Virus record (IMG/VR): IMGVR_UViG_3300030376_005231
Span: 678-64,677 of that record
Source: a virus
Lineage: Duplodnaviria; Caudoviricetes
DNA length: 64,000 nucleotides
Direction: 5' to 3' (one strand)
Both the position numbers and the translations under genes were made by a program. Shown here one piece after another: positions 61,754-62,618 of the stretch; the stretch's first letter is position 1; the number at the start of each line of letters is the position of its first letter. The notes under the pieces are model-generated. The model did no database searches and had not been told where the DNA came from. It saw nothing but the letters and a program-made list of their open reading frames with translations.

Positions 61754-61984
61754 TTAATTATTTAAGTTTTTAATGTCTTCTTTGTGTCCTAAGATTAAAC
61801 ATCCTATTATTAAATAACTAGACCCTAAAAAGAATGCTAGTGCAATCATCCATGCAAAGAAATCTGTTGCTCCATGAATGTCTGTTTGAAGGATGTGTAC
61901 TAGCAAGTTTGCTACCATCGTAATAACTCCTAGAGATACTAAGAATGTCAATCCGTTCGTAAAATAAATGTGTGATTTTTTCAT
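61754..61984 (-). CDS. Two-TM membrane protein
   Basis: Two hydrophobic helices; first gene after hammerhead 1. Confidence 0.65.
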   Translation of the reverse strand: MKKSHIYFTNGLTFLVSLGVITMVANLLVHILQTDIHGATDFFAWMIALAFFLGSSYLIIGCLILGHKEDIKNLNN

Positions 61985-62008: not shown

Positions 62009-62057
62009 CTGTTTCATCCTTTTGGAATCATCAGTCGAGACACTCATCTCGATACAG
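62009..62057 (-). ncRNA. Type III hammerhead ribozyme, copy 1 (variant)
   Basis: CUGUA^UCGAGA-UGAGUG-UCUCGA-CUGAUGA-UUCC-AAAA-GGAU-GAAA-CAG; U.U replaces the usual G10.1-C11.1 pair. Confidence 0.75.
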
Positions 62058-62087
62058 GAGCAGTTTAGTATCTTACTCAGGATATCG

Positions 62088-62118
62088 CAAATGTACGAAA
62101 AATAAACGAAACTACAAA
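62088..62118 (-). promoter_or_regulatory. Bacteroidota promoter directly upstream of the hammerhead 1 module
   Basis: TTTG-N19-TACATTTG. Confidence 0.8.
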
Positions 62119-62119
62119 A

Positions 62120-62512
62120 TTACTCTGTAACTTCCTCTTCTTCTTCCTCTTCTGCCTTGTCAAATTTAATTGCAATATCAAACTTTTCATCTTCATCGAA
62201 TTGACCACATATCTCATCCCAAACATGTTCTTCAATAGCGATTGTTTCTCCACCATAACAGGAGTCTTGAATGTATTCTTTGAAGCTATCAATGAATCCG
62301 TATTCATCATAATGAATGTCATCACAGATGCTTGGATTAGAATTATTGTCTGATAGCACATACAAATCATAACCATCTTTTGAAGTCTCTGTCCATGCGT
62401 ATTTGTCTGCTGAACTGATTTCCCAAATTGAGTAGCCGATTTCTAGCTGAAAATCCATAGCTGTTAAAAATTCTTTAGTGTTCATTTCACTTAATTGTTC
62501 TCTTGTGTACAT
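62120..62512 (-). CDS. Acidic protein (130 aa) between the two hammerheads
   Basis: Start re-assigned to MYTREQL after AAATAACATT leader; D/E rich; ends EEEEEEVTE. Confidence 0.7.
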   Translation of the reverse strand: MYTREQLSEMNTKEFLTAMDFQLEIGYSIWEISSADKYAWTETSKDGYDLYVLSDNNSNPSICDDIHYDEYGFIDSFKEYIQDSCYGGETIAIEEHVWDEICGQFDEDEKFDIAIKFDKAEEEEEEEVTE

Positions 62513-62537
62513 AATGTTATTTATTAATTTAATATTT

Positions 62538-62586
62538 CTGTTTCGTTCTTTTGAACTCATCAGCACAAGCACTCACTTGTGGACAG
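62538..62586 (-). ncRNA. Type III hammerhead ribozyme, copy 2 (canonical)
   Basis: CUGUC^CACAAG-UGAGUG-CUUGUG-CUGAUGA-GUUC-AAAA-GAAC-GAAA-CAG; full catalytic core and GUC site. Confidence 0.92.
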
Positions 62587-62618
62587 GAGCAGTTTGGTAT
62601 CATGCTCAGGATAGTCTG

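Follow-up and report, generated by a model that had tools for sequence, protein, structure and literature searches.

Paired type III hammerhead ribozymes in a widespread phage intercistronic cassette that probably dices an early transcript into end-protected messages

About 2 kb from the right end of a 64,000-nucleotide (nt) stretch of DNA from a Caudoviricetes phage (positions 678 to 64,677 of the IMG/VR virus record IMGVR_UViG_3300030376_005231; hereafter the window), two co-oriented RNA elements bracket an open reading frame (ORF) of 130 amino acids (aa) that lies downstream of an ardC-like anti-restriction gene, in a region where all genes are read from the minus strand. The window covers nearly all of the 64,677-base record, which was judged 99% complete. 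Comparison with related phage sequences identifies both elements as genuine type III hammerhead ribozymes, from which we infer self-cleavage, and each belongs to a cassette that recurs between the cistrons of many phage operons. We propose that the ribozymes are active and that the cassettes probably dice an early polycistronic transcript into messages with protected ends. Each cassette runs, in order, from a stable 5′ structure (here an H-type pseudoknot) through the cleavage site and the ribozyme body to an unstructured leader of ~25 nt and a start codon.

The original prediction, made from the sequence of the window, had placed two co-oriented type III hammerheads around the 130-aa ORF on the minus strand, and all of its sequence statements are confirmed, including the positions of the two predicted cuts (Table 1) and the 529-nt product (62581-62053) that they would release. 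Both copies carry the exact hammerhead core (CUGANGA and GAAA) and an NUH cleavage triplet, and in both a stem I of 6 base pairs (bp) is closed by an identical 6-nt loop and a stem II of 4 bp by a 4-nt A loop, leaving open a stem III that consists of 3 bp and the U16.1:A15.1 pair. In hammerhead A the stem III 5′ strand (62586-62584) is followed by U16.1 at 62583 and C17 at 62582; stem I pairs 62581-62576 with 62569-62564, the core spans 62563-62557, stem II pairs 62556-62553 with 62548-62545, and the GAAA (62544-62541) leads into the stem III 3′ strand (62540-62538). Hammerhead B has the same layout, displaced by 529 nt. The core-plus-GAAAC pattern occurs exactly twice in the 64 kb, both times on the minus strand, against 0.21 occurrences expected.

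The Rfam Hammerhead_3 model (RF00008), named in the original prediction as a check, scores both copies below its threshold: a scan of the whole window at the gathering threshold returned nothing, and in E-value mode copy B scored 30.3 bits (E = 2e-4) and copy A 18.1 bits (E = 0.69), compared with a gathering cut-off of 48.5 bits. By database evidence alone both copies would be candidates only, and with sub-threshold scores it is the comparative evidence that is decisive. A covariance model of the family, run on the genome, found only copies A and B, at 90 bits each, scores that are expected given that both copies are in the training set; the next best match reached 14 bits.

Relatives were recovered by pattern scans of IMG/VR and of JGI/ENA metagenomes, mostly on marine contigs. 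A structure-based script identified 130 family members in the fetched loci, and covariation was assessed in a gap-free alignment of 49 distinct members. There, the named structure is 89% paired, compared with 67% in shuffles, a percentage inflated by the retention of only those pattern matches whose stems pair; 65 of ~100 unique pattern matches passed this filter, which random sequence would pass at ~2%. The covariation score of 0.63 compares with 0.21 in shuffles (0/500) and with at most 0.13 when the partners are slid. Stem I is paired in 100% of the 49 members, with double changes at 6/6 pairs, and stem II has double changes at 3/4 pairs. Compensatory change in stems I and II, which the original prediction had seen between copies A and B and taken as a sign of selection on RNA structure, is strong across the relatives. 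The core is invariant across the 49 relatives and loops I and II nearly so (alignment columns 45, 46, 49 and 69-71), a degree of loop conservation consistent with the tertiary loop I-loop II contact of fast natural hammerheads.

For the 49-member set the search pattern dictated stem III; a pattern-free scan shows it to vary, with AUG/CAU and extended forms. The base that follows U16.1 is distributed as UC 67, UU 35 and UA 28, and never as G at position 17, a base that the search filter excluded. No such restriction was imposed on the 10.1/11.1 pair beside the core, which among the 130 members is G-C in 91, U.U in 20, A.A in 18 and G.U in one, and never A-U, U-A or C-G. The mismatched forms thus account for 38/130 members (~30%), and the inner pairs of stem II covary around the mismatch. 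The original prediction had singled out the copy with U.U as its weak point; that copy is B (62009-62057), copy A having G-C, and because U.U and A.A recur in this way, the U.U of copy B reads as a recurrent natural variant rather than a private lesion.

Directly 5′ of each hammerhead we found a further element that the original prediction did not contain, an H-type pseudoknot of ~27 nt. The 31-nt block that precedes the two hammerheads occurs exactly twice in the window, against 0 expected, and the pseudoknot module is built from a covarying hairpin of 4-6 bp, an 8-nt loop of near-fixed sequence, an A-rich linker and five bases that pair with the loop. Covariation of the pseudoknot helix extends across classes, with double changes at three pairs in the 49-member alignment, and in a permutation test a complement to the module's own 3′ strand is present in 50/65 modules, against 28.7 on average and never more than 37 in 1000 permutations. 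In both caps, A and B, the pseudoknot 3′ strand directly abuts the stem III 5′ strand and the two helices could stack; other members have spacers of 1-15 nt. Among 34 family members that lie outside the upstream-pattern selection, nearly all have a GC-rich hairpin or a pseudoknot 0-3 nt before stem III, and the family therefore appears to follow a rule by which a stable structure sits just before the cut and the new 3′ tail would be ~5 nt or less.

Co-oriented arrays of 2-6 cassettes are common among the relatives, at a spacing of 315-1400 nt that corresponds to one to three small genes. Many loci carry two copies, as does a complete 58-kb relative; a complete 65-kb relative carries three, loci L076 and L118 four, and loci L088 and L106 six within ~5-6 kb. 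The distance from the ribozyme 3′ end to the next ATG is 17-28 nt in most of 119 cassettes, with a mode of 24-25, and the proteins encoded downstream of these 119 cassettes fall into 60 clusters. A search of relatives, which the original prediction had also suggested, thus found the module and showed that the genes it encloses vary, with 1-3 per unit. In three loci (L065, L109 and L113) ardC and copy A are separated by an additional gene of 134 aa; the 130-aa gene has a homologue in L056, a locus that lacks copy A; and in L118 the order is ardC, ribozyme, a 92-aa gene, ribozyme, and then homologues of the 76-aa and 130-aa genes in one unit. Because gene order around the cassettes varies in this manner among close relatives, the bracketed unit is not conserved.

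In the model that we favor, the leftward early transcript would begin upstream of ardC and pass through the cassettes, and each ribozyme would cut itself co-transcriptionally. The upstream message would end in the compact pseudoknot and a 5-nt tail bearing a 2′,3′-cyclic phosphate, an end on which 3′ exonucleases and poly(A) polymerase would act poorly. Given the known properties of PNPase, RNase II and RNase R, a five-base tail would be too short to serve as a toehold for them. The downstream message would begin with a 5′-OH and two hairpins, making it a poor substrate for 5′-end-dependent RNases, and would continue into the standard leader. The operon would in this way be split into ardC, 130-aa-ORF and downstream messenger RNAs (mRNAs), each with a stability and translation independent of its neighbors. 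This reading is supported by the intact cores, the NUH triplets, the helices and their covariation, the arrays, the constant spacing to the ATG and the stable 5′ structures, as well as by the fact that no terminator-like site was found between ardC and the 76-aa ORF. Ribozyme-driven processing of the first (ardC) operon, which the original prediction had held in reserve behind a circular RNA, fits everything found.

Several observations weigh against intercistronic dicing. Both copies score below the Rfam gathering threshold, and U.U at 10.1/11.1, as in copy B, lowers activity in classical hammerheads. The nearest-neighbor minimum free energy fold pairs the CUG of the core, and not the stem III strand, with the 3′ CAG (62538-62563 and 62009-62034), giving a competing inactive conformer; such single-sequence folds miss stem III, are uninformative for a 3-bp helix and were given no weight in either direction. 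The conformer might be disfavored if the pseudoknot stacks on stem III. A Bacteroidota-type promoter-like motif precedes cassette B, and some transcripts could start there rather than read through; we treat it as a lead only. It is one of 8 such motifs on the minus strand of the window, it follows the stop codon of the 130-aa ORF and precedes cap B, and near relatives preserve its -7 box. The protective role of the pseudoknot at the message end is one that we infer. Finally, the pseudoknot module also occurs alone, with at least 120 viral contigs matching one strict pattern, and the matches listed (L143-L262, e.g. L197:11257-11290, L160, L178 and L229) gave 148 unique copies. Leaving aside 18/148 listed copies with a tRNA gene 4-14 nt downstream, an open frame starts a median of 28 nt after the pseudoknot in 113 of the remaining 130, with no known cut site, so that the pseudoknot may have another or an additional role.

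Among the 18 tRNA genes that follow a free-standing pseudoknot, 13 encode tRNA-Asp; tRNA 5′ ends are RNase P sites, and the position of the pseudoknot ahead of them counts in favor of the dicing model; no tRNA gene lay directly after the first pseudoknot-only loci, and the association appeared only in the larger sample. A hammerhead-like core follows 2/148 listed copies. The base after the free-standing module is A in 71% of the listed copies, and G is nearly absent from the next four positions. In some GC-rich phages (L017:200-309, minus strand; L020:1578-1700, plus strand) the pseudoknot and a CUGU are followed by a different structured segment of ~60-90 nt, which has no hammerhead core and matched no Rfam family. 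E-value scans that included the pseudoknot-only loci found no Rfam 15 family matching the pseudoknot, and we found no description of the cap in the literature. Several identities for it were considered and set aside. A tRNA-like minihelix ending in ACCA was rejected, as ACCA follows only 14/149 copies; a nut-like boxB/boxA antitermination site is argued against by the presence of up to six copies per operon and by replacement of the pseudoknot with plain hairpins. The drum motif, considered as a candidate hammerhead-associated element, was dropped as a terminator-linked and unrelated motif (PMC5737381).

Of the alternatives to dicing, the one that survives best, which we nevertheless regard as unlikely, is that the cassettes are regulated or attenuated switches, in which the pseudoknot and the non-canonical 10.1/11.1 pairs tune the time or rate of cutting. 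The pseudoknot would then bind a factor or ligand, or compete with stem III, and so determine the balance between polycistronic and monocistronic RNA in the course of infection. The restriction of 10.1/11.1 to G-C, U.U, A.A and G.U suggests selected slower variants, and the loop and linker bases of the pseudoknot are invariant across phages of very different GC content, as in RNAs that bind ligands or proteins. Pairing of the core CUG does compete with stem III, and some variants have an extended stem III that overlaps with the strand of the pseudoknot. The architecture also resembles that of preQ1-I-like riboswitches, a candidate with no Rfam hit and no gene association that we keep within this alternative. 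A switch, however, has here no known ligand, protein partner or condition-dependence; plain hairpins replace the pseudoknot in many members, which argues for a generic structural role; and the pseudoknot stands anywhere from 0 to 15 nt away from stem III.

We give somewhat less credence to a second possibility, that the cassettes persist chiefly for a role at the DNA level, as recombination handles or as mobile boundaries for the shuffling of small early genes between phages, with ribozyme activity secondary or selfish. The diversity of clusters downstream of the cassettes would suit such a role, as would the differences in gene content between cassettes of close relatives. In L109 the upstream hammerhead (L109:2669-2752, minus strand) is a chimera that joins the stem I and flanks of copy A to the stem II of copy B, the two cassettes lying 526 nt apart, which suggests short-patch exchange or gene conversion between them. 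The original prediction had raised recombination handles as an option, and the chimera and the variable cassettes lend it some support, though not as the only selected function. Substitutions in the stems are compensatory and leave many G.U pairs on the sense strand, and the core and loops are invariant, which means that selection acts on a folded catalytic RNA and not just on sequence identity. Adjacent copies, moreover, share only ~60 identical positions, interrupted by divergent stems, and would be a poor substrate for homologous recombination.

Less likely again is the proposal at the center of the original prediction, that the 529-nt RNA is rejoined into a protein-coding circle by a hybrid hammerhead, in which the 3′ end of cassette B docks on the body of ribozyme A, or by the host ligase RtcB; its extension, by which this RNA and the family's other inter-ribozyme units would be translatable circular mRNAs, made by host RtcB or by a hybrid hammerhead stacked on the pseudoknot cap, is more doubtful still. 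If a circle were formed, the earliest anti-defense proteins would be given an exonuclease-proof message. Hammerhead cleavage leaves ends of the right kind for RtcB or for reverse hammerhead ligation, retrozymes and viroids circularise by this route (PMC4918200, PMC7761336), and Bacteroidota can carry RtcB, the Bacteroides thetaiotaomicron control scoring above the cut-off in our search. The same search, with that genome as control, found no RtcB encoded by the phage. The inner stem III is identical in copies A and B, so that a hybrid ribozyme can form on paper and a circle is sterically possible, and 29/35 distinct adjacent pairs in the relatives are cross-compatible in stem III. This identity, from which the original prediction had derived the hybrid hammerhead, is the family default of CUG/CAG, so that the compatibility does not exceed background: the remaining 6/35 pairs are incompatible, about what the frequency of the default predicts. 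Stem III is minimal (3 bp and the U:A pair), which favors product release, and in the ensemble of the 529-nt RNA each of the 4 pairs of the hybrid helix has a probability of only ~0.05, so that the ends are not stably held. The enclosed unit is itself variable, with 1-3 genes, the extra gene of L065, L109 and L113, and the loss of copy A in L056. Circular or spliced products were sought for comparable arrays by Perreault et al. in 2011, and none were detected (PMC3088659). These points speak against a designed self-excising circular mRNA, and nothing found supports one.

That one or both copies are inactive relics without present function, as the sub-threshold Rfam scores, the U.U of copy B and the mutated core of one relative (L019) might suggest, is highly improbable given the full core in both copies, the retention of both, stems included, in close relatives, the family-wide covariation and the recurrence of U.U in lineages that are independent and differ in their inner stem II pairs.

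The intercistronic dicing that we favor has its closest precedent in the prophage hammerheads described by Perreault et al. in 2011, which flank single genes or short gene blocks, were cleaved in vitro in three arrays and in vivo in one, around ardA in Agrobacterium, and in Legionella lie directly upstream of ardA; processing into operon- or gene-length mRNAs was proposed and the idea of a circle already raised (PMC3088659). The pipeline of that study rejected U.U and A.A at 10.1/11.1 (PMC3088659). Like those arrays, of which the triple array around ardA in Agrobacterium tumefaciens is the closest parallel, the present hammerheads are co-oriented and intergenic, enclose variable genes and adjoin an anti-restriction gene. 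Unlike them, they are of type III with a minimal stem III, are fused to a 5′ pseudoknot or hairpin, stand ~25 nt from a start codon and neighbor ardC rather than ardA, and ~30% of the family has U.U or A.A beside the core. With RF00008 the family shares the core, the topology with stem III open, and the loops on stems I and II, and differs from it in a loop II of 4 nt, compared with a longer consensus loop, and a stem III of 3 bp.

Functional parallels can be drawn with other systems. In the early transcript of phage T7, host RNase III cuts hairpins between cistrons and leaves a stable structure at each new 3′ end. There, as here, the operon that enters first starts with an anti-restriction gene, and it is cut between cistrons as we propose for the present one; in T7 the enzyme is a host protein, whereas here the RNA would cut itself, leaving 5′-OH and cyclic-phosphate ends and a pseudoknot as 3′ cap. 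RiboJ, an insulator engineered from a plant satellite RNA, places a hammerhead upstream of the ribosome-binding region and standardizes the 5′ end of the message. The phage element likewise puts a hammerhead before the translation start region, and differs in being a natural cassette with a 5′ cap module. In retrozymes and viroid-like circular RNAs (PMC4918200, PMC7761336), two hammerheads of the same polarity release a unit with ligatable ends, as they would here, but those RNAs are non-coding or replicative, have rod-like or branched folds that join the ends and form demonstrated circles, whereas the present unit is an ordinary mRNA whose gene content varies. The hammerhead class, arrays that flank phage genes beside an anti-restriction gene and the circle hypothesis are thus already in the literature; a sub-threshold type III sub-family, the fixed geometry of its cassettes, the variants with U.U or A.A by the core and the pseudoknot cap appear to be undescribed.

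Table 1. Features of the cassette locus (window coordinates)
Feature	Position	Strand	Details
ardC-like anti-restriction gene, 310 aa	62619..63551	-	First gene counted from the right end of the genome; cistron upstream of hammerhead A
Pseudoknot cap A	62587..62613	-	Hairpin 62613-62610 with 62601-62598, 4 bp, 8-nt loop; loop bases 62607-62603 pair with 62591-62587; A-rich linker 62597-62592
Hammerhead A, type III	62538..62586	-	Triplet GUC; predicted cut 62582^62581; G-C at 10.1/11.1
Leader, hammerhead A to start codon of 130-aa ORF	62513..62537	-	25 nt, A/U-rich
130-aa ORF	62120..62512	-	Bracketed by hammerheads A and B; downstream of ardC
Promoter-like motif, Bacteroidota type	62088..62117	-	TTG, 19 nt, TAnnTTTG; just 5′ of cap B; lead only
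Pseudoknot cap B	62058..62084	-	Architecture as cap A; 62084-62081 paired with 62072-62069 in the hairpin; 62078-62074 in the loop paired with 62062-62058, including one G.U
Hammerhead B, type III	62009..62057	-	Triplet GUA; predicted cut 62053^62052; U.U at 10.1/11.1 (62027/62016)
Leader, hammerhead B to next start codon	61985..62008	-	24 nt, A/U-rich
76-aa small protein gene	61754..61984	-	Hydrophobic (grand average of hydropathy 0.8); downstream of hammerhead B

The ardC-like product matches the Pfam families ArdcN (5.6e-21) and MPTase-PolyVal (2.7e-27) and PHROG 7245, an anti-restriction protein (1.2e-58). The product of the 130-aa ORF is strongly acidic, with an isoelectric point of 4.05, 37 D+E against 8 K+R and a net charge of ~-29. 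It is an ORFan, with homologues of 78-96% identity in near relatives and 28-50% in more distant phages, and Pfam, PHROGs and the homologue search yielded no function for it. Its C-terminus carries a run of glutamates, and its composition is reminiscent of DNA-mimic anti-restriction proteins, with no family, PHROG or distant homologue found. The 76-aa protein belongs to the gene family most often found directly downstream of the hammerheads (12/119).

The start regions at the locus are A/U-rich and lack Shine-Dalgarno motifs, and the best relatives of a primase-like protein are found in phages of Flavobacterium, Nonlabens, Polaribacter, Cellulophaga and Maribacter; on these two grounds the host is likely to be a marine member of the Bacteroidota, with a lineage within the Flavobacteriia suggested. 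A megablast search of the locus against GenBank phages gave no match, and MW202828.1, whose primase is the most similar among GenBank phages (70% aa identity), carries no cassette. A scan of genome contigs gave two matches that look like chance occurrences inside coding sequence, and no host was identified from them. In the last 200 bases of the genome (63800-64000) the minus strand is strikingly C-rich and G-poor, with short repeated C-rich words, and may be a terminal or packaging region.

The function of bacterial and phage hammerheads has been a question since 2010-2011, and the present family, which standard Rfam annotation misses and in which U.U and A.A pairs beside the core are tolerated in nature, offers an anatomy of unusual clarity. 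This anatomy, which occurs in as many as six copies per operon and ahead of at least 60 gene families, leads to a testable model of mRNA dicing with end protection. The pseudoknot is very widespread in phages, where it is also found shortly ahead of other RNA termini, for instance the 5′ ends of tRNAs, and it may be a general 3′-end or boundary element.

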